NCBI GenBank assembly: GCA_049325295.1
Contig: JBMOMD010000021.1
Location: 87,560-151,559, forward strand
From: Nitrospirota bacterium
GTDB lineage: Bacteria; Nitrospirota; Nitrospiria; 2-01-FULL-66-17
Length of the DNA stretch: 64,000 bases
Direction of reading: 5' to 3'
A model generated the notes under the pieces. That model saw only the letters and a program-made list of their open reading frames with translations, was not told where the DNA came from and made no database searches. Made by a program: the position numbers and the translations under genes. Shown one piece after another: positions 4,598 to 43,273 of this stretch; the first letter of the stretch is position 1, and each line of letters begins with the position of its first letter.

Positions 4598-6163
4598 ATG
4601 ACGCGACCGATCACAGTAAAGACCGGGTCGATTCGGCAGGCCACGGAAGACGCGGTGGTGGTATTCCGCAACCAAGGCGGAGAAGCCCCCGAGTTTTTTG
4701 CCGCCGTCGGCAGGGCGGTGGGACCCTCGTTCGCGCAAGCGCTCGCCGGAGCCGGATTTGAAGGCAAGGCGAGTCAGGCGGTCCTGATGCACACCGCGGG
4801 ACGCATCAAACCGCGTGTGGTGGTGGCGGTGGGGCTCGGCCCGCGCGAGGGCATGGGGCCGGAGCGCGTACGGCAGGCCGCGGCGCGCGCGGTGCAACGC
4901 GCGCGGGACGCGGGGTGCGAGCGCGTGGCGTTCGACGCCGCGATCGGCGACGACGCCGAGGCGACAACGCGCGCGTGCGTCGAGGGCGCCGTCATGGGGT
5001 TGTATCGTTTCACACGTTATAAGACCGATCGCGGCAACAACGGGCGCGAGGTCAAGGCCTTGGTCTGTTACATCGGCTCGGGGGACTTGGCGGCCGCGAA
5101 AGCCGGCGCGCGCCGCGGCGCGATCGTGGCCGAGAGCGTGAACCACGTCCGCGACCTGGGGAACCTTCCCGCGAACGTGGCGACGCCCACGTATATCGCG
5201 GACCGCGCCCGCGCCATGGCGCGGGCGAACAAATTGACGTGCGAGGTCATCGACCGCAAGGGCATGGAGCGCCTGGGCATGGGCGCGCTGCTGGGCGTGG
5301 CGCGCGGCAGCATGGAACCGCCCAAGTTCATCATCCTTCGGTACGACGGCGGCAAACGCGCCGGCGCGTCGGACCGTCCCATCGCCCTGATCGGCAAAAC
5401 CATCACGTTCGACAGCGGCGGCATTTCGCTCAAACCCGCGGACAAGATGGAGCAGATGAAAAGCGACATGATGGGCGGGGCCGGCGTGTTATCGGTCATG
5501 GAGGCCGCGGCCAAACTGGCGCTCCCGATTTCGATCGTCGGGCTGTTGCCCGCCACCGAGAACATGCCGAGCGGGACCGCGATCAAACCCGGCGACGTGG
5601 TGACCGCGATGTCGGGCACCACGGTGGAAGTCATCAACACCGACGCGGAAGGCCGGCTGATCCTGGCGGACGCCTTGGCCTACGCGGTCAAACGCTTCCA
5701 GCCCAGGTTGATGGTGGACATCGCCACGTTGACCGGCGCGTGCTCCATCGCACTGGGCCAACACGCGATCGGCTTGCTCGGGACGGACGAGCCGCTCATC
5801 GACCGGCTGCGTCGGGCCGCGGACGACTCGGGCGAACGCGTGTGGCAGTTGCCGCTGTGGGAGGAGTACTACGAGCAAATCAAAAGCGACGTGGCCGACC
5901 TCAAGAACACGGGCGGCCGCGCCGCCGGGACCATCACCGCCGCGGCGTTCCTCAGCAAATTCGTGGCCAAGACCCCATGGGCGCACCTGGACATCGCGGG
6001 CACCATGTGGAGCGACGACGCGCGCCATTACGTGACCAAGGGCCCCACCGGCGCGGGCGTGCGCTTGCTCATTCAGTTCTTGATCGACGAAGCGGGGAAC
6101 ACGCGCGCGCCGAAACCGCGCGCGAGGACGCGGGCCGGACGCCGGACCACGGCGCGGCGATGA
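4598..6163 (+). CDS. pepA: Leucyl aminopeptidase (M17)
   Basis: M17 signature 'NTDAEGRLILADAL' and 'GKTITFDSGG'. It has an Arg-rich C-terminal tail, and its stop overlaps the nagZ start (ATGA). Confidence 0.9.
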   Translation: MTRPITVKTGSIRQATEDAVVVFRNQGGEAPEFFAAVGRAVGPSFAQALAGAGFEGKASQAVLMHTAGRIKPRVVVAVGLGPREGMGPERVRQAAARAVQRARDAGCERVAFDAAIGDDAEATTRACVEGAVMGLYRFTRYKTDRGNNGREVKALVCYIGSGDLAAAKAGARRGAIVAESVNHVRDLGNLPANVATPTYIADRARAMARANKLTCEVIDRKGMERLGMGALLGVARGSMEPPKFIILRYDGGKRAGASDRPIALIGKTITFDSGGISLKPADKMEQMKSDMMGGAGVLSVMEAAAKLALPISIVGLLPATENMPSGTAIKPGDVVTAMSGTTVEVINTDAEGRLILADALAYAVKRFQPRLMVDIATLTGACSIALGQHAIGLLGTDEPLIDRLRRAADDSGERVWQLPLWEEYYEQIKSDVADLKNTGGRAAGTITAAAFLSKFVAKTPWAHLDIAGTMWSDDARHYVTKGPTGAGVRLLIQFLIDEAGNTRAPKPRARTRAGRRTTARR

Positions 6164-7592: not shown

Positions 7593-8576
7593 TCAGGGCG
7601 CGAAACGGCGGGCGGAGGCCGCCAGCACGCGCCGCGCGGCCGCCATGTCCTCCGGCAACGGGGCCGTGAACACCATCGGGCGTCCGCTGATCGGGTGGAG
7701 AAATCCCAACTGTTGGGCGTGCAGGAGTTGGCGTCGAACCGGCACGTCGGGCGGCGGGACCCCGCGGCGGCCCCCGTAGACCGAGTCTCCCAACACGGGA
7801 TACCCCAGGTGGGCCATGTGGACGCGGATCTGGTGCGTGCGTCCGGTCTCCAACGTGATCGCGACCGAGGTCGCGCGTCCGAACCGTTCCACCACCTCAT
7901 AATGGCTGACCGCGGTTCGGGGACTGGTGGTACGGGCCGAAATCTTCTTGCGTTCCCACACGTCCCGGCCGATGGCCAGATCAATGGTGCCTTTGCGCGG
8001 CCGCACGTCGCCCGCCACGATCGCCAGGTACCGCCTGGCAATGCTGTGGATCTTGAATTGGCGCATGAGCCCGGTGTGCGCGGCGTCGTGTTTGGCCACC
8101 ACCAACAATCCGGAGGTGTCCTTGTCCAATCGATGGACGATCCCGGGTCGCGCCTTGCCGCCGATTCCGGCCAAGTCGCGGCAGTGGTGCAGGAGCGCGT
8201 TGACCAGGGTCCCGGACGCGTGGCCCGGCGCCGGGTGCACGACCAACCCGGGGGGCTTGTTTAGGATCAACAAATCATCGTCCTCGTATACGACCTCGAT
8301 CGGGATGGGTTCGGCGCTGATTTCCACCGGCTGCGGCGGCGGGTGATGGATGACGATCCGGTCGCCGGGTCGAATGAGGTACGATGCCTTGGTGGGACGG
8401 TCGTTGACCAGGATGAGACCGTCTTCAATACCGCGTTGGATGCGCGAGCGCGACACGGGCAGGCCCTGGCGCGCGAGAAATCGATCGATACGTTCCGAAG
8501 CCTCGCCCCCGGAGACGGTGATCTCGGTCACGGCGTCAGTGGACTCGCGAGCCTGCCCGTCGGCGTGTCCCCCCAT
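7593..8576 (-). CDS. rluD: 23S rRNA pseudouridine synthase, RluD family
   Basis: An S4-like N-terminus ('RIDRFLARQG..SRSRIQ') and the catalytic motif 'HRLDKDTSGLLVVAK'. No clear SD at 8576, so the start is uncertain. Confidence 0.85.
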   Translation of the reverse strand: MGGHADGQARESTDAVTEITVSGGEASERIDRFLARQGLPVSRSRIQRGIEDGLILVNDRPTKASYLIRPGDRIVIHHPPPQPVEISAEPIPIEVVYEDDDLLILNKPPGLVVHPAPGHASGTLVNALLHHCRDLAGIGGKARPGIVHRLDKDTSGLLVVAKHDAAHTGLMRQFKIHSIARRYLAIVAGDVRPRKGTIDLAIGRDVWERKKISARTTSPRTAVSHYEVVERFGRATSVAITLETGRTHQIRVHMAHLGYPVLGDSVYGGRRGVPPPDVPVRRQLLHAQQLGFLHPISGRPMVFTAPLPEDMAAARRVLAASARRFAP

Positions 8577-8607
8577 GGTTTAGGGGCCTGTCTGAATATC
8601 CCAGTTT

Positions 8608-8734
8608 GGCGCCTGGTCAGGGAAAGACAGATGCAAGGCGGAGGGAGGATCTTGCGCGCGGAGCGTACTGGGTCGTACGTGAGCACGCAAGACCGACCGA
8701 CAACGCCGCAGATGGCTTTCCATGGCCAGGCGCC
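8608..8734 (-). ncRNA. Unclassified structured intergenic element, copy A (four predicted helices)
   Basis: It shares three invariant blocks with 34815-34939 (opposite DNA strand). Helices P1-P3 differ in sequence but remain complementary. See findings. Confidence 0.55.
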
Positions 8735-9267
8735 TAGGGGCGGGCGGCTTGGCGCGCGTCGGGCTGGCGGTGCAGGAGCGCGTGGCCTAATAACATCACC
8801 ATGCCCACCGTGATGCCGGAGTCCGCGACGTTGAACACCGGCCAGTGGTATGGGCCGACGTAGAGGTCGATGAAGTCGATCACTTCGCCGTAGCGGACGC
8901 GGTCGATCAAATTGCCGATCGCGCCCCCGAGGATCAGCGACAGTGAGGTGACGCTCCACCAATCCCCGCGTTCCACGCGGCGGAGAAAGATGCTGATGAG
9001 GACCAACGCCACGACCGACACGATCAGAAAAAACCACGTGCGAAACGTGGGGTGCGCGTCCGCGAACAGGCTGAACGCTGCGCCGGGGTTACGGGTGTAG
9101 GTGAGATTGATCGAGGGGATGATCGGGATCGACTCGTGCAGGGTCATGGCGCGTTGGACCACGGATTTGGCCGCTTGGTCCGCAAGCACGATCAGCGCGG
9201 CGATCCCGGACGCCCACACGCCGGGCCGCCACGGGCGGGCGGCGTGGGAGCGCTCGTGTCCGCTCAT
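8734..9267 (-). CDS. lspA: Lipoprotein signal peptidase II
   Basis: 'NTGAAFS'-like 'NPGAAFSLF', 'GGAIGNLIDR' and 'FNVADSGITVG' motifs. The ATG overlaps the ileS stop (ATGA). The rest of ORF 8734..9999 is antisense noise. Confidence 0.85.
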   Translation of the reverse strand: MSGHERSHAARPWRPGVWASGIAALIVLADQAAKSVVQRAMTLHESIPIIPSINLTYTRNPGAAFSLFADAHPTFRTWFFLIVSVVALVLISIFLRRVERGDWWSVTSLSLILGGAIGNLIDRVRYGEVIDFIDLYVGPYHWPVFNVADSGITVGMVMLLGHALLHRQPDARQAARP

Positions 9268-12143
9268 ACGCCGGCGAGCACGGCCGCGCAGCGCCCGCAC
9301 ACGTCCGCGCGGCGCTGGTCCGCCCCCACGTCCGTGCGGTACGCCCAGCACCGCGCGCATTTGGCGCCGGGCGCGCGCTCGACCACGACCGCAAGGTCCG
9401 GCGCGAGCGTCTCGGCGTGGCCGGGCCGTTGGTCGAACCCGTTGAGCGCGACGTCGGACACGATCAACAGCGAGGGGAGTTCGTTGCGGTCTTTCGCGAG
9501 CGCGTCGCGCAAGGGCCCCGCGGCATACATTGCCACGCGGGCGTCCAACGACGCCCCGATGGTTTTGGCCGCCCGCGCGCGTTCCAAGGCTTTGGCGACG
9601 TGCGAGCGGGCCTCGAACAAACGCTCCCAGTGGGCCGAGGCGTCCGCGGGCAGCGCCCAGGTTCCCGGCGGCGAGGGGAACTCGCTCAGGTGCACGCTCG
9701 ATATGGTGCGCGAGCCTTCGGGCAGGTGCGTCCAGATGTCTTCCGCGGTGAACGAGAGAATCGGGGCCATCAAGCGAACGAGGGCGGAGAGAATCGATTC
9801 CAACGTCGTTTGCGCGGCGCGGCGAGCCGGACCGGTTTTCGCCTCCGTGTACAACCGGTCTTTGAGGATGTCGAGGTACATCGCGCTCAAATCCACGGCG
9901 CAGAAGTTGTTCACGGCGTGAAACACCGCGTGAAATTCGTAGGCGTCGTACGCCTCCCGAACCCGCATGATCAAGGCCGCGAGCCGGTGCAAGGCCCACC
10001 GATCGATCGGCTGCAGACGTTCGAGTGGGACCGCGTCGCGCCGCGGATCAAAATCCGCCACGTTGGCGAGCAGAAAGCGGGCGGTGTTGCGGATTTTGCG
10101 GTACGCCTCCACGAGCTGGCTCATGATCGCGGGCGAAATCCGGATGTCGTCCCGGTAGTCCTCCGCCGCGACCCACAGCCGCAACAGCTCCGCGCCGTGT
10201 TGCTTGATGATTTCCTGCGGGGCCATCACGTTGCCCGCGGACTTGGACATTTTTTTGCCCTGGCCGTCCACCACGAATCCGTGGGTCAGCACCGCGTCGT
10301 AGGGCGCGCGCGGGTCCGTGAGCAACGACGTCAACAATGTACTGTGAAACCAACCGCGATGTTGGTCCGACCCTTCCAAGTACAACGCCGCGGGCCACGC
10401 CAACTCCGGCCGGCGCTTGAGTACCGCGGCGTGGCTCACGCCCGATTCAAACCACACGTCCAGGATGTCACGTTCTTGCTGGAAGCGACGGCCGCCGCAT
10501 TTGGTGCAGACGGTTCCGGGCGGCAACAACTCGTCCGCGGATTTTGAAAACCAGATGTCGCTGCCCTCACCACGCTCCATCTGGTCCGCCACGTGGTCCG
10601 CAATCGGTTTGCTAACGAGTGACGACCCGCAATCCTGACAGGCAAAGGCCACGATCGGCACGCCCCAGACCCGCTGCCGTGAGATGCACCAGTCGGGCCG
10701 GTTCGTCATCATGCCCACGATGCGCTCGCGTCCCCAGCGGGGCACCCAGGTCACCCGATCGATCTCGGTAAGCGCGCGTTGTCGCAGCGTGGCGCCGGTA
10801 CGATCCGGCTGATCCATGGCAATAAACCACTGCTCGGTCGCGCGGAAAATCACCGGATTTTTACACCGCCAACAGTGGGGATACGAGTGTCCGATGGTGG
10901 AGGCGTGCACGAGTCGTCCGCGAGATCGGAGCAGTTCGATGATCGCGGGGTTGGCGTCGAGCACGCGCTGGCCCGCGAACGGCCCCGCGTCGTTGGTAAA
11001 GCGGCCCCGGTTGTCCACGGGCGCGTACACGTCCAACCCGTACTCCATACCGACCACGTAGTCTTCTTGCCCGTGGCCGGGCGCGGTGTGGACGCACCCC
11101 GTGCCCTGCTCCAGGGTGACGTGCGTGCCGAGCACGATCGGCGAGGGTTGGTCAAGCCACGGATGGTTAAACACCCATCCCTTGAGCGCCGCGCCCTTGA
11201 ACTTGGCCACGGTGGTGATGGCCGGCTGCGCGTCGAGCCCGGTCTGTTTGGCGAAGGTCGAATAGAGATCCTGCGCTACGATGAAGGCCTCGCGTCCCGC
11301 AACGCAGACCACGTACTCGAAGTCCGGATGGAGACACACGGCTTTGTTCGCAACCAAGGTCCACGGCGTCGTGGTCCAAATCACGATCGACAAATCTTTC
11401 CCGTGGAGCGACTGGGCCGCGGCCGGCTGATTCGCGCCCAATGCCGTCACGATATCAGATAGGCGTTCGGTGTCGCGTCCGCGCAGCGGAAACCTGACGT
11501 AGATCGACGGCGAGGTGTGATCGGCGTACTCCACTTCGGCTTCGGCGAGCGCGGTCTCGTCTTGCGGGCACCACAACACGGGTTTCTTGCCTTTGTAGAC
11601 CGTGCCGGTGTCCACGATTTTGCCGAATTCGCGGACGATCGCGGCTTCATAATCCGGGGTCATGGTCAGATAGGGGTGACCCCAATCGCCCAACCCGCCG
11701 AGGCGCTTGAACTCCTCGCGCTGGATGTCCACGAACCGCTCCGCGTACTCGCGGCAGCGACGGCGGATCTCCAACACGCTCATCCCCGTTTTTTTCGGGC
11801 CGAGATCCTTGAGGACCTGGTGTTCGATCGGCAATCCGTGACAGTCCCACCCCGGGATGTACGGGGCGTCGTCGCCGCGCATGGTGCGGTATTTGACGAT
11901 CACGTCCTTGAGAATCTTGTTGAGCGCGTGGCCGATGTGGATGTGGCCGTTCGCGTAGGGCGGACCGTCGTGGAGGATGAATTTCTTCGCGCCGCGACGT
12001 TTCGCGCGCAGCGACGCGTAGAGCCCGTCCGCGTCCCAACGGGCCAGCAGCGCGGGCTCCTGCCGCGCCAGATCGGCCTTCATGGGGAACGACGTGGTCG
12101 GCAGATTGAGGGTGTCGCGATAGGTTTTGGAAGAATCGGCCAT
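9264..12143 (-). CDS. ileS: Isoleucyl-tRNA synthetase
   Basis: 959 aa with the HIGH motif 'PYANGHIHIGHA', 'KMSKS' and a C-terminal zinc-finger CxxC pair. Confidence 0.95.
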   Translation of the reverse strand: MADSSKTYRDTLNLPTTSFPMKADLARQEPALLARWDADGLYASLRAKRRGAKKFILHDGPPYANGHIHIGHALNKILKDVIVKYRTMRGDDAPYIPGWDCHGLPIEHQVLKDLGPKKTGMSVLEIRRRCREYAERFVDIQREEFKRLGGLGDWGHPYLTMTPDYEAAIVREFGKIVDTGTVYKGKKPVLWCPQDETALAEAEVEYADHTSPSIYVRFPLRGRDTERLSDIVTALGANQPAAAQSLHGKDLSIVIWTTTPWTLVANKAVCLHPDFEYVVCVAGREAFIVAQDLYSTFAKQTGLDAQPAITTVAKFKGAALKGWVFNHPWLDQPSPIVLGTHVTLEQGTGCVHTAPGHGQEDYVVGMEYGLDVYAPVDNRGRFTNDAGPFAGQRVLDANPAIIELLRSRGRLVHASTIGHSYPHCWRCKNPVIFRATEQWFIAMDQPDRTGATLRQRALTEIDRVTWVPRWGRERIVGMMTNRPDWCISRQRVWGVPIVAFACQDCGSSLVSKPIADHVADQMERGEGSDIWFSKSADELLPPGTVCTKCGGRRFQQERDILDVWFESGVSHAAVLKRRPELAWPAALYLEGSDQHRGWFHSTLLTSLLTDPRAPYDAVLTHGFVVDGQGKKMSKSAGNVMAPQEIIKQHGAELLRLWVAAEDYRDDIRISPAIMSQLVEAYRKIRNTARFLLANVADFDPRRDAVPLERLQPIDRWALHRLAALIMRVREAYDAYEFHAVFHAVNNFCAVDLSAMYLDILKDRLYTEAKTGPARRAAQTTLESILSALVRLMAPILSFTAEDIWTHLPEGSRTISSVHLSEFPSPPGTWALPADASAHWERLFEARSHVAKALERARAAKTIGASLDARVAMYAAGPLRDALAKDRNELPSLLIVSDVALNGFDQRPGHAETLAPDLAVVVERAPGAKCARCWAYRTDVGADQRRADVCGRCAAVLAGV

Positions 12144-33049: not shown

Positions 33050-34816
33050 GTGCGCGACAGCGTGCAAAGACGGATCGTCTTGTCGATCTTGATCGTCGGG
33101 GTGGCGTCCCTGCTCGTGGGCCTCTCCTTGGTCTACTTTGTCGGCAAGTCCACGCTCAAGCGGACCATCGGCGCCAATTTTCAAGAACTCGCCGACGTCA
33201 CGGCCAAAAAACTCGATGAACTGATCGATCACCACGTCGAACGGGCGGTGTTTTTGGCCGGTTTGAACGACGTGCTCGACGCGGTGCGACGGGCGAACGA
33301 CGAACCGGTCTCCCCGGCCGTTGACGTGCGTTTACAGGCCGTGTGGGCGCAGTTGGGCGCCTCGGATCGCGACGTGGCGCGGGTCGTGGACAACCCGGCG
33401 GCCAACGCGTTCCGCGCCATGACGCGGATGTCCGGCGATCCGGCGGCCGAACATCCGTCGCACGAGATCGTGATCGCGGCCGACGCGCACGGCCGCGTGG
33501 TGGCCGCGACGCGCAAACCGTCGGCGTATATCTTCACCGACGCCGTGTGGTGGCGGGAGGCGTACGCGAGCGGGCAAGGCCGCCTGTTTCTCAGCGACGT
33601 GTTGTTCGACGACGGGTTAGGCCGGTACGTCTTCATCATCGCCACGCCCATCCGCCGGGACGGCCGGGTCGAAGGGGTCTTGGCCATGGTGCACGACGCG
33701 CAGGCGTTCTATCAATGGGTCACGTCGATCCAGGTCGGGCGGACCGACCACACCATGTTGGTGGCGTCGGACGGGACGTTGTTGTTCTGCCCCGTGTTCC
33801 CGATCAAGAGCCATACGCTGCACCCCTCGTTGGTCGCGTCGATCGTCCAAGGGGGCCGGGGCTGGGGAACGACGCTCCACGACGTGCACTACCCGGGCTC
33901 GGAGGCGATCAACGGATTCGCGCCGGTGCGGGCGTCGACCTCGCCGGGGACGAATTTCGGCGGCAAGGCGTGGTACATCTTCACGAGCCAAGACCCCAAA
34001 GAGACGTACGGACCGGTCTACACGTTGCTGGGGTGGATCATCTTGTCCGGCGCGGCGGCCATCGGCCTGTTGCTCTTGTTGGGCTTGGCCGCGGCCAAAC
34101 GTATCGTCCGCCCGATCCGGATCGTGCAAACCGGTGCGCAGGCGATCGGCAACGGCAACCTGAACCATCGCATCCACGTCGACACCGACGATGAAATCGG
34201 CGCCCTCGCGCGGGGCATCAACGAGATGGCCGCCAAACTGTCCACGTCCTACAACGAGTTGGAGCGGATGGTGGAAGAGCGCACGCGGACCCTGGCGCAG
34301 CGCACGAGTCAACTCGAACAACGCAATCAAGAACTCTTTCTGCTGCACGCGATCGCCTCGTCCCTCAACAAGGCGCAATCGCTCGACGACGTGTTGGGCG
34401 AACTGCTGAACAAGGTGCTGGGGGGGGTGGAAGCGCACGCGGTGTTCATCGGTCTCGCCGAGCCGGGCCGCGGCGTCTTGTTGCACGGTCGCCCGCAATT
34501 CGTGGCGGCGCAGGATGACATGGCCCATCTCGCGGAGTCGGTGGTGCAACAAGTCTTGGGCGTCGGGGACCTGGTGGTGGTGCCCGATACCGGCGCCGAT
34601 CCCGGGTACCAGGCCTTTGCGCGGCAGGCCCGATCGCTGATCGGGATTCCCCTTCGCGCCAAGGAAAAGACGCTGGGCGCGATCGTGCTGGTGTACGTCA
34701 AGCCGCGCGTCCCGACCACGGAAGAGCGGGAGTTCCTCGCCTCGATCGGCCATCAGGCGGGCGTGGTGGTGGAGAATGCCCGGCTCTTTGGGCTCTTCAA
34801 GAATCTCGCCGGATAG
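33050..34816 (+). CDS. Membrane sensor protein: periplasmic Cache-like domain, HAMP, coiled coil, GAF; no recognisable output domain
   Basis: N-terminal TM, a second TM before HAMP ('IVRPIRIVQTGAQAIGNGNLNHRI..DEIGALARGINEMA'), and a GAF-like C-terminus ('LIGIPLRAKEKTLGAIVL'). No H-box, GGDEF or HD motif seen. Confidence 0.65.
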   Translation: MRDSVQRRIVLSILIVGVASLLVGLSLVYFVGKSTLKRTIGANFQELADVTAKKLDELIDHHVERAVFLAGLNDVLDAVRRANDEPVSPAVDVRLQAVWAQLGASDRDVARVVDNPAANAFRAMTRMSGDPAAEHPSHEIVIAADAHGRVVAATRKPSAYIFTDAVWWREAYASGQGRLFLSDVLFDDGLGRYVFIIATPIRRDGRVEGVLAMVHDAQAFYQWVTSIQVGRTDHTMLVASDGTLLFCPVFPIKSHTLHPSLVASIVQGGRGWGTTLHDVHYPGSEAINGFAPVRASTSPGTNFGGKAWYIFTSQDPKETYGPVYTLLGWIILSGAAAIGLLLLLGLAAAKRIVRPIRIVQTGAQAIGNGNLNHRIHVDTDDEIGALARGINEMAAKLSTSYNELERMVEERTRTLAQRTSQLEQRNQELFLLHAIASSLNKAQSLDDVLGELLNKVLGGVEAHAVFIGLAEPGRGVLLHGRPQFVAAQDDMAHLAESVVQQVLGVGDLVVVPDTGADPGYQAFARQARSLIGIPLRAKEKTLGAIVLVYVKPRVPTTEEREFLASIGHQAGVVVENARLFGLFKNLAG

Positions 34817-34939
34817 AGCCTGTCCATGAGCGGCCATCTGCGGCGTTGTCGCTGCGCTTCCGGTCCTCACGTACGACCCAGTACGCTCCGGTCCGGTGCT
34901 CGCTCCGCCTTGCATCTGGCGCGCTCCTGAACAGGCTCT
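34815..34939 (+). ncRNA. Unclassified structured intergenic element, copy B
   Basis: P1 34815-34823/34931-34939; P2 34828-34832/34922-34926; P3 34860-34866/34890-34896; P4 34870-34874/34881-34885. The invariant blocks are identical to copy A. Confidence 0.55.
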
Positions 34940-34971
34940 CCTTCCAGACGTCATTACGAGGAACACCAAGA

Positions 34972-35781
34972 ATGAAGGGAGACCTTCGTCCCCGCAAGTC
35001 GCTCGGGCAATGTTTTCTGACGGACCCGCGGATCGCGGAGAAGATTGTCGCGCTCGGTGATGTCGGTCCCTCGGATCGGGTGGTGGAAATCGGGCCCGGG
35101 CGCGGCATTCTCACCAGGCTGTTGGTCGAACGCGCGGCCGAGGTGACGGCGATCGAACTTGATCCGCGGTGGACCGCCGCGTTGCGTGAGGAATTCGCCG
35201 GAGTTGCCCGCCTGCGCGTTGAACAGGCCGACGCGTTGGCCTACCCGTTCGAACACCACGCGCCGGGCTTCAAGGTCATCGCGAATTTGCCCTATAACAT
35301 TTCCACGCCGATCCTCTTTCGTCTCCTGAGCCTTCGCGAGCGAATTGCCCTGATGGTCCTCATGCTGCAACGCGAGGTGGTGGATCGTTTGTTGGCGCGT
35401 CCCGGGACCAAGGCGTACGGCGCGCTCTCCCTGGCCGTGGCCTACGCCGCGGACGTCCGCAAGGGTTTTCCGGTGGCGGCGGGGAGCTTTTCCCCTCGCC
35501 CGGCCGTGGAGTCCGCGGTGGTGGTGATCACCCCGCGCGCCACGCCCGCCATTCTCGTGCGGGACGAGTCGATGCTGATGCGCGTGATCCGCGGCGCGTT
35601 TTCGCACCGGCGCAAGGTGTTGGCCAACGCGCTCACCGACGAGGGGTTTGAAAAACCCGCGCTCACCGCCGCGCTCGAACGGGCGGGGATCGATCCGGCG
35701 CGACGGGGCGAGACGTTGAGCCTGGAAGAGTTCGGCCGCGTGGCCGACGCACTCGTCGCTAGAACGTCAGCGTCAAGTTGA
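34972..35781 (+). CDS. rsmA: 16S rRNA (adenine1518/1519-N6)-dimethyltransferase
   Basis: Starts 'MKGDLRPRKSLGQCFLTD' and has 'EIGPGRGILT' and 'NLPYNISTPI' motifs. GAGGAA SD is present. Confidence 0.9.
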   Translation: MKGDLRPRKSLGQCFLTDPRIAEKIVALGDVGPSDRVVEIGPGRGILTRLLVERAAEVTAIELDPRWTAALREEFAGVARLRVEQADALAYPFEHHAPGFKVIANLPYNISTPILFRLLSLRERIALMVLMLQREVVDRLLARPGTKAYGALSLAVAYAADVRKGFPVAAGSFSPRPAVESAVVVITPRATPAILVRDESMLMRVIRGAFSHRRKVLANALTDEGFEKPALTAALERAGIDPARRGETLSLEEFGRVADALVARTSASS

Positions 35782-39070: not shown

Positions 39071-39207
39071 TCGCCCTCCCCCCTTGCGGGGGAGGGATGG
39101 GGTGGGGGGATTTATATGGGCGTCGGATGCTGGGATGCGGATGGCCACTCGTCCCCCCATCCCTTCGTCCCCCCATCCCTGCCTTCCCCCGCAAGGGGGG
39201 AAGGGGT
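39071..39207. repeat. G/C-rich REP-like element: two inverted hairpins flanking a ~85-nt core
   Basis: CCCTCCCCCC-ttgc-GGGGGAGGG (39074-39096) and CCTTCCCC..GGGGGGAAGG (39182-39204) are reverse complements of each other. A direct repeat GTCCCCCCATCCCT x2 lies inside. Confidence 0.6.

Positions 39208-43199: not shown

Positions 43200-43273
<74 letters not shown>

Follow-up and report, generated by a model that had tools for sequence, protein, structure and literature searches.

Hairpins on two gene ends of a Nitrospirota genome as probable members of a high-copy palindromic repeat family associated with stop codons

Introduction

What is a long hairpin doing between the end of one gene and the start of an rRNA-modification gene, twice within the same 64,000-nt window (i.e. 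the whole stretch of DNA analysed here, positions 87,560 to 151,559 of the Nitrospirota contig JBMOMD010000021.1)? The two hairpins, designated copy A and copy B, begin within the stop codons of lspA and of a sensor gene and precede an rluD-type pseudouridine synthase gene and rsmA, respectively; the original prediction, made from the sequence of the window, had read this arrangement as a possible cis-acting signal tied to ribosome biogenesis or, alternatively, as the product of an insertion mechanism targeting stop codons. We argue (with a probability of about 60%) that A and B are members of a high-copy non-coding palindromic repeat (about 122 nt and a 3-nt tag) which is a non-autonomous mobile element, a reading that draws on multicopy depth, insertion polymorphism, an element-borne stop codon, a maintained hairpin, nested repeats and tandem arrays. 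The features concerned are the following (window coordinates, strand).

34815..34939, plus: copy B, 125-nt imperfect hairpin (from its fold, A34815 pairing with T34939)
8608..8734, minus: copy A, 127-nt imperfect hairpin (from its fold and its alignment to copy B)
34814..34816, plus: TAG at the 5' foot of copy B, stop codon of the sensor gene
8734..8736, minus: TAG at the 5' foot of copy A, stop codon of lspA
33050..34816, plus: dCache_1-HAMP-GAF sensor gene, upstream of copy B (Pfam)
34972..35781, plus: rsmA/ksgA (RrnaAD; Pfam), downstream of copy B, ATG at 34972
8734..9267, minus: lspA (Peptidase_A8; Pfam), upstream of copy A
7593..8576, minus: rluD-type pseudouridine synthase gene (PseudoU_synth_2 and S4; Pfam), downstream of copy A, ATG at 8576
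34940..34971, plus: 32-nt spacer before the rsmA ATG, with TCCAGAC and a GAGGA Shine-Dalgarno-like site; flank, not element
8577..8607, minus: 31-nt spacer before the rluD ATG, containing TTCAGAC
34866..34890, plus: apex motif of copy B, CTCACGTACG-ACCCA-GTACGCTCCG (fold, exact repeat)
8659..8683, minus: apex motif of copy A, the same as that of copy B (exact repeat)
34833..34851, plus: conserved left-arm block GCCATCTGCGGCGTTGTCG (exact repeat; peak of repeat depth in metagenomes)
34903..34918, plus: conserved right-arm block CTCCGCCTTGCATCTG (exact repeat)

Two related hairpins in one window

The geometry first proposed for the two copies holds in all its coordinates: copy B runs from the sensor TAG (34814-34816) to 34939, 32 nt before the rsmA ATG, and copy A starts on the lspA TAG (8734-8736), 31 nt before rluD (gene order ileS, lspA, copy A, rluD-type synthase). 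Both lie between same-strand genes, the identity of the rsmA and rluD-type neighbours being confirmed by Pfam, and in both the first paired base of the hairpin falls within the TAG of the upstream gene. A and B align end to end and have exact blocks of 19, 25 and 16 nt in common (GCCATCTGCGGCGTTGTCG, CTCACGTACGACCCAGTACGCTCCG and CTCCGCCTTGCATCTG), each of which occurs at A and B only in the 64 kb (0-0.7 matches in shuffles); outside these blocks they diverge in sequence, with complementarity kept within each copy. Predicted folding energies are -67.4 kcal/mol for copy B (z -3.7) and -74.7 kcal/mol for copy A (z -6.3), as compared to shuffled sequence. On inspection, the reading frames of A and B were found to differ relative to the apex, so that there is no conserved peptide, and read-through of the tag was rejected.

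Copy number and element boundaries

Contigs of four metagenomes with relatives of the source organism, aligned to the copy B region, reached a depth of 20-85 times the flank level precisely over 34816-34938, and in two of the runs 211 and 550 contig fragments, respectively, carried the element in other flanks. These fragments part from the window sequence right at the element ends (34816-34818 and 34938); the unaligned 5' parts of the other copies have a consensus that ends in TAG (often CTAG) in all four metagenomes, and no common 3' tail was found among the other copies in these contigs. The common unit is GAGCC...GGCTC, about 122 nt in length (34816/7-34938 in copy B) and preceded by TAG, and the metagenome depth amounts to tens of copies per genome. 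Within the unit, the left-arm block (34836-34850) stood at 2-5 times the depth of the right arm (34891-34935), which suggests either truncated copies or related families with the left arm alone in common.

Filled and empty alleles

At site B the element is present in the window and in an orthologous locus (L120) of the Nitrospirota metagenome-assembled genome (MAG) JBMOMC01, and missing from L118 (the closest relative recovered at this site, with 91.7% nucleotide identity in the sensor gene) and from the more distant L121/L122. By its RsmA and RluD homologues, the window itself belongs to a Nitrospirota MAG. In the empty alleles the sensor gene ends in ...GCC GGC TCC TGA and is followed by a spacer of 89-90 nt; the filled alleles read ...GCC GGA TAG (window) or ...GCC GAA TAG (L120) and continue into the element. 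Subtraction of TAG...GGCTC from the window joins GCC GGA to TCC T..., and since this joint corresponds to GCC GGC TCC T... of the empty allele, the element, including its stop codon, sits in frame between the last two codons, with its TAG one codon upstream of the ancestral TGA. To judge from the same comparison, the former TCC TGA was apparently pushed downstream and has since decayed.

At site A the window and L203 carry the element, whereas L204/L205, L206 and L207 (relatives with about 78% nucleotide identity in lspA) are empty; the empty alleles end lspA in ...CCC TGA or ...GCC TGA, and rluD starts 5-7 nt on. Both filled alleles carry TAG at the codon position of the TGA of the empty ones, and the lspA-rluD junction measures 158 nt with the element as compared to 5-7 nt without it. 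As the empty alleles end in TGA and the filled ones in TAG, the TAG was brought by the element and was not a pre-existing target; as this TAG replaces the native stop at both loci, the upstream gene is left essentially intact. Both resolved insertions thus lie no more than one codon from the ancestral stop. The earlier alternative of an insertion targeted to stop codons agrees closely with the data, placement on stops being strand-specific and family-wide (see below), and is refined in that the element carries the stop itself and recognises no existing TAG.

A 7-mer at the left junction of copy A (GCCCCTA, 8735-8741, minus strand) is repeated at 8581-8587, where it lies 20 nt past hairpin A and directly before the AACC-ATG of rluD (p about 0.003); it may represent a local duplication of the former lspA end.

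Distribution across phyla and maintenance of the hairpin

A species-representative genome collection was scanned for CTCACGTACG-N6-GTACGCTCCG; the window copies have an N5 loop, and the scan therefore gave the loci of relatives without the source genome's own copies. Among the matches listed, the apex motif with the N6 loop was present at at least 117 loci, which are spread over about eight phyla; the carriers were Bacillota (Bacillus caseinilyticus with many copies, Pelotomaculum, Desulforudis and others), Alpha-, Beta-, Gamma- and Deltaproteobacteria (Smithella, Syntrophaceae), Bdellovibrionales, Nitrospirota, Holophagae (Acidobacteriota) and Saccharibacteria. Together with the window these loci yielded 134 copies (128 unique with full flanks), and in 103 of them the apex is enclosed by a fold of at least 30 base pairs. 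The hairpin (roughly 55 bp, imperfect, formed by one strand) has a constant apex, with UCA/CUCC as its internal loop, CGUAC:GUACG as a stem of 5 bp, a closing pair and a variable loop of 5-7 nt; the closing pair is G-C in 40 of 81 copies and C-G in 31, and copy B has a C-G pair. The arms are lineage-specific and follow the G+C content of the host, and remain complementary. For the 18 alignable copies (Nitrospirota and Deltaproteobacteria), 92% of the cells were paired versus 29-44% in slid controls, and compensatory two-sided changes were found in 17 of 31 pairs versus 8.8 +/- 1.5 in shuffled alignments (a value of 17 being reached in 0 of 500 shuffles). By these alignments, the hairpin structure is maintained while its sequence changes.

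Rfam 15 gave no gathering-score match for the element (best sX9, E = 4.4, 12.6 bits versus the 44 required), and the apex 10-mers (as DNA, RNA and reverse complement) retrieved unrelated primers alone from the searchable full-text literature. Among 2.9 million viral contigs a single apex match was found (L208:3652-3675, IMGVR_UViG_2718217990_000001), which implies that the element is not phage-borne.

Several copies harbour further repeats. In the site B copy of JBMOMC01 the apex is replaced by a GTAG-tagged palindrome resembling repetitive extragenic palindromes (REPs) (GTAGGGGCGTATGGCTATACGCCCCTAC, L120:9806-9841), and a similar REP-like sequence (GTAGGGGCGAATGGCCATTCGCCC) was found in a Bacillota MAG (L022:6476-6499); ordinary GTAG REPs are thus present in these genomes as well, and insertion of one repeat into another can occur. 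Several Nitrospirota copies (L203:~7852-7897, L120:~9866-9911, L031, L059, L060, L067 and L075) contain in the right arm, between CGCCTT and GCATCTGG, a segment of about 45 nt (GCGACCCnCCTTC...GGAAGTCCCCGAAGGGnG), which is present in L203 and absent from the orthologous window copy A, and which either represents a mini-element nested at a specific target or arose through conversion between copies. Other short repeats occur inside the copies of L046, L120 and L203.

Placement at stop codons

With neighbours taken from rough gene calls and distances measured from the apex, the upstream neighbour was co-oriented for 60 copies and opposed for 20, and the stop-to-apex distance of co-oriented upstream genes peaked at 46-53 nt. 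Independently of gene calling, 32 of 114 copies had an open reading frame (ORF) of at least 100 codons with its end 45-54 nt 5' of the apex, as compared to 1 of 114 for the mirror side of the hairpin on the other strand. A slightly wider interval (44-58 nt before the apex) captured an ORF end in 36 of the 114 copies, with TAG as the stop in 16, TAA in 14 and TGA in 6; since TAG makes up about 24% of the stops over all called genes, it is over-represented at the element. Placement on stop codons is a strand-specific and family-wide property, and about two thirds of the copies lie away from a stop codon.

The tag itself is lineage-specific and belongs to the element: it is TAG in Nitrospirota and Deltaproteobacteria (the base before it being variable, often C or G) and TAA or TGA elsewhere, with TGA-AGCCAT found in gammaproteobacterial copies whether a gene ends there or not, and TAA in the A+T-rich alphaproteobacterial ones. 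Three orthologous Syntrophia copies have CTT, CTG and CTA as the codon before TAG, a synonymous drift which indicates that the insertion is old and vertically kept and that TAG is a working stop.

Bacillus caseinilyticus strain SP (L003, L032, L053, L079 and L116) harbours head-to-tail arrays with a period of 160-162 nt; its copies are often anti-oriented to the neighbouring genes, and many of them are preceded by TAGAGGATGTTCAAAAAG, which places the TAG about 67 nt before the apex. A gammaproteobacterial copy (L046:~4885-5010), situated between a fimV-like gene and truA, starts 1 nt past the fimV-like TGA and has its left arm split by about 125 nt of unrelated structured sequence.

Strand asymmetry

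Covarying pairs showed 62 two-sided changes versus 3 one-sided G-U changes, with switches almost entirely between Watson-Crick pairs, and mismatches of the G:U type (176) were as common as those of the A:C type (174). Such nearly exclusive Watson-Crick switching, together with the parity of G:U and A:C mismatches, is unlike what selection on a sense RNA would leave. Moreover, mismatches on the tag strand were pyrimidine-pyrimidine in 616 cases versus purine-purine in 68, the pyrimidine excess being found in 82 of 82 copies, regardless of lineage or of orientation to the neighbouring genes. As a consequence of this asymmetry the complementary strand is predicted to be the stabler one, both with RNA parameters (118 of 126 copies, mean -57.0 versus -48.6 kcal/mol) and with DNA parameters (119 of 126), and its apex loop (GGAG/UGA) could form tandem G-A pairs. 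Taken together, these results point to a strand-specific substrate, probably at the DNA level.

Proposed mobilisation and comparison with known repeats

If A and B are mobile repeats, the element would insert at a gene end, or within a codon of it, be transcribed as part of the operon and be mobilised in trans by an enzyme for which the invariant apex would serve as the recognition site. By analogy with GTAG-tagged REPs, the most likely candidate would be a single-strand-DNA transposase of the HUH/Y1 type (RAYT-like), the analogy being drawn from the tag and the hairpin foot, the lack of target-site duplication and the strand asymmetry. The insertion at site A would have uncoupled the translation of lspA and rluD, and a hairpin of this length could also affect mRNA stability.

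A number of observations weigh against a mobile repeat of this kind. No transposase or RAYT-like gene was found beside any copy in a weak search (RAYT/HUH motifs in the six-frame translation of 1.49 Mb of loci and in called proteins, with Pfam on one inverted pair) that was not genome-wide. Target-site duplications are lacking as well, with a significant flanking direct repeat in 1 of 36 tagged copies (copy A, GCCCCTA). At about 122 nt the element is 3-5 times as long as a REP, and it is the apex and not the termini that is most conserved, the opposite of classical MITEs (miniature transposable elements with inverted repeats). An apex common to Bacillota, Nitrospirota and Saccharibacteria is furthermore unusual for lineage-specific REP/RAYT systems, and could reflect a conserved cellular partner. 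Finally, random insertion followed by selection would not easily put one third of the copies exactly on stop codons.

The closest known systems are the GTAG-tagged REPs/REPINs and hairpin MITEs such as ERIC and Correia, and the element departs from the definitions of both: from that of REPs in length and, as far as the loci examined show, in the fixed tag and in the REPtron, and from that of MITEs in target-site duplication and conserved termini. In REPs, it is often the tag that provides a flanking ORF with its stop codon (PMC3733652). Like the REP/REPIN-RAYT systems, the element is a palindromic stem that has at one foot, in the Nitrospirota and Deltaproteobacteria lineages, an unpaired tag ending in TAG, occurs in high copy at extragenic positions downstream of ORFs (between unidirectional or convergent genes), forms dimers or arrays, lacks target-site duplications and persists vertically over long periods. 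Unlike REPs (20-40 bp, lineage-specific, with a fixed GTAG), it is not composed of two self-palindromic REP units, its tag is NTAG, TAA or TGA according to lineage, its apex is common to about eight phyla, and no RAYT gene flanked by copies (i.e. a REPtron) was found in the 1.49 Mb of loci.

Hairpin MITEs within bacterial operons include ERIC/IRU (about 127 bp), Correia/NEMIS, RUP, BOX and bcr1. They resemble the element in size (70-300 bp), in being non-coding, in the inverted symmetry of the whole unit, in their position beside coding sequences and between same-strand genes, and in presence/absence polymorphism between relatives (a comparison taken in part from PMC3733652). In contrast to MITEs, the element has no target-site duplication (1 of 36) and no insertion sequence (IS) was seen in the loci examined, its termini vary by lineage around an invariant centre, and it carries a stop-codon tag in fixed phase. 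The ends of IS200/IS605 elements likewise combine a hairpin that follows a short 5'-foot motif with strand-specific structure and no target-site duplication, but their 5' motif is a pre-existing target (the empty sites of our element being without TAG) and they bear two subterminal hairpins instead of a single long one.

The repeat family, which is found neither in Rfam nor in the searchable literature, spans Bacillota, several proteobacterial classes, Nitrospirota, Acidobacteriota and Saccharibacteria, and it rewrites gene ends: native stops are replaced, a codon is trimmed and tight junctions become structured spacers of 150 nt. The annotation and operon models of these mostly uncultured lineages should account for it. 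The cross-phylum invariance of the apex and the universal strand asymmetry go beyond current models of REPs and MITEs, and following them up may reveal a mobilising enzyme or host factor that is new.

Alternative explanations

A fairly unlikely explanation, compatible with a mobile origin, is that the element has been exapted by its hosts as an RNA hairpin that acts on the upstream gene (in termination/ribosome stalling or 3'-end protection), with the apex bound by a conserved RNA-binding protein or RNase. In E. coli, REPs that lie no more than about 15 nt from a stop codon reportedly cause ribosome stalling and set off trans-translation (Liang, Rudd and Deutscher 2015). The sharp, strand-specific phasing on stops in many phyla speaks for such a role, as do the long maintenance of the hairpin at orthologous sites and the use of all three stops at the tag according to lineage, which suggests that stop-codon function matters. 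On the other hand, the upstream genes are functionally heterogeneous (by Pfam as mixed as the downstream ones), close relatives manage without the element, about two thirds of the copies lie off stop codons, and the Bacillus copies are often anti-oriented to the neighbouring genes. The near absence of G-U from covarying pairs (3 one-sided versus 62 two-sided changes), the equality of G:U- and A:C-type mismatches (176 versus 174, unlike sense-RNA selection) and the greater predicted stability of the strand complementary to the mRNA also count against it.

It is likewise unlikely, in our estimate, that the family constitutes an ancient and previously undescribed class of stop-codon-anchored structured repeat, with an invariant apex that is read by a conserved partner. 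If it did, the partner would be either a new type of single-strand transposase or recombinase, by which the element is put on gene ends, or a cellular factor recruited to terminating ribosomes or mRNA 3' ends, and the strand asymmetry would mark the active strand.

We regard as distinctly improbable an attC-like nature, i.e. a recombination site that functions as single-strand DNA, on the complement of the mRNA strand, where a site-specific recombinase or nuclease would act on a purine-rich bottom-strand hairpin with the apex C[GGAG]CGTAC..GTACG[TGA]G. The universal strand asymmetry (616 versus 68; 82 of 82 copies), the complementary strand predicted to be the stabler one (in 118 of 126 copies by RNA parameters, in 119 of 126 by DNA parameters) and compensatory changes that are nearly all Watson-Crick to Watson-Crick would fit such a site. 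The element (about 125 nt) furthermore resembles the attC sites of the Vibrio cholerae repeats (123-126 bp) in length, in its imperfect palindrome, in that it begins on or close to a co-oriented ORF's stop codon and in the conservation of structure over sequence. Unlike attC, however, it lacks the R''/R' core sites (RYYYAAC ... GTTRRRY), its feet being ...CCTGTYCA / TGAACAGG... where GTT is on the 5' and AAC on the 3' side; it is conserved at the apex and not at the base of the hairpin, and its copies are dispersed among housekeeping genes, with no cassette arrays and no integrase seen nearby. On account of the absent core sites and the housekeeping neighbours, identity with attC was rejected.

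The proposed role as a leader, processing signal or attenuator, by which rsmA and rluD would be controlled according to the status of ribosome biogenesis, is very improbable, in spite of the position of both window copies 31-32 nt before rRNA-modification genes and of the gammaproteobacterial copy upstream of truA. When copies were mapped to their downstream genes across the family, the functions proved unrelated and the distances broad: 47 co-oriented downstream genes fell into 52 Pfam families, among which RrnaAD and PseudoU_synth_2 occurred once each (both in the window genes, i.e. rRNA modifiers make up 2 of 47 downstream neighbours), and the distance from the apex to the next gene was 26-1689 nt for co-oriented and 48-1385 nt for convergent neighbours. 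Copies beside genes of unrelated function are what the original prediction had itself named as refuting it. An all-against-all BLAST of 786 flanking proteins revealed no recurrent neighbour gene, the clusters consisting of housekeeping proteins and of spurious ORFs in the Bacillus arrays. As a negative control, 80 rluD loci of other bacteria (545 kb, collected by a metagenome scan with conserved RluD peptide stretches, at most 51% identical) contained no apex motif. Relatives with a nucleotide identity of about 92% in the sensor gene and of about 78% in lspA are without the element at their orthologous rsmA and rluD loci, and there are tens of copies per genome. The Shine-Dalgarno site and start codon of the downstream genes lie outside the main hairpin in both A and B. 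The TYCAGAC motif put forward as a shared signal is present in both spacers (TCCAGAC in B, TTCAGAC in A), but we take the sharing to be chance: the motif of B lies in a flank that loosely resembles, by eye, the empty allele (TCCTGATCAGTGAC), in that the start of the spacer (TCCT..CAG) recalls the empty-allele sequence after GGC, and other copies have no conserved 3' tail. The adjacency of A and B to rRNA-modification genes is a coincidence, and a tempting but false regulatory link between the repeat and ribosome-biogenesis genes is hereby removed.

No U-run follows either of the hairpins A and B, by which an intrinsic terminator or attenuator is excluded; a SECIS/PYLIS-like recoding signal and a K-turn were set aside as their defining features are absent.

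Other features of the window

A tRNA gene (43203-43273, minus strand) is the sole gathering-score match to Rfam in the window. A separate G/C-rich inverted repeat (CCCTCCCCCCTTGCGGGGGAGGG...) is found at 39074-39110 / 39168-39204, with arms of 37 nt (86% complementarity) and 57 nt between them, and may belong to another repeat family.

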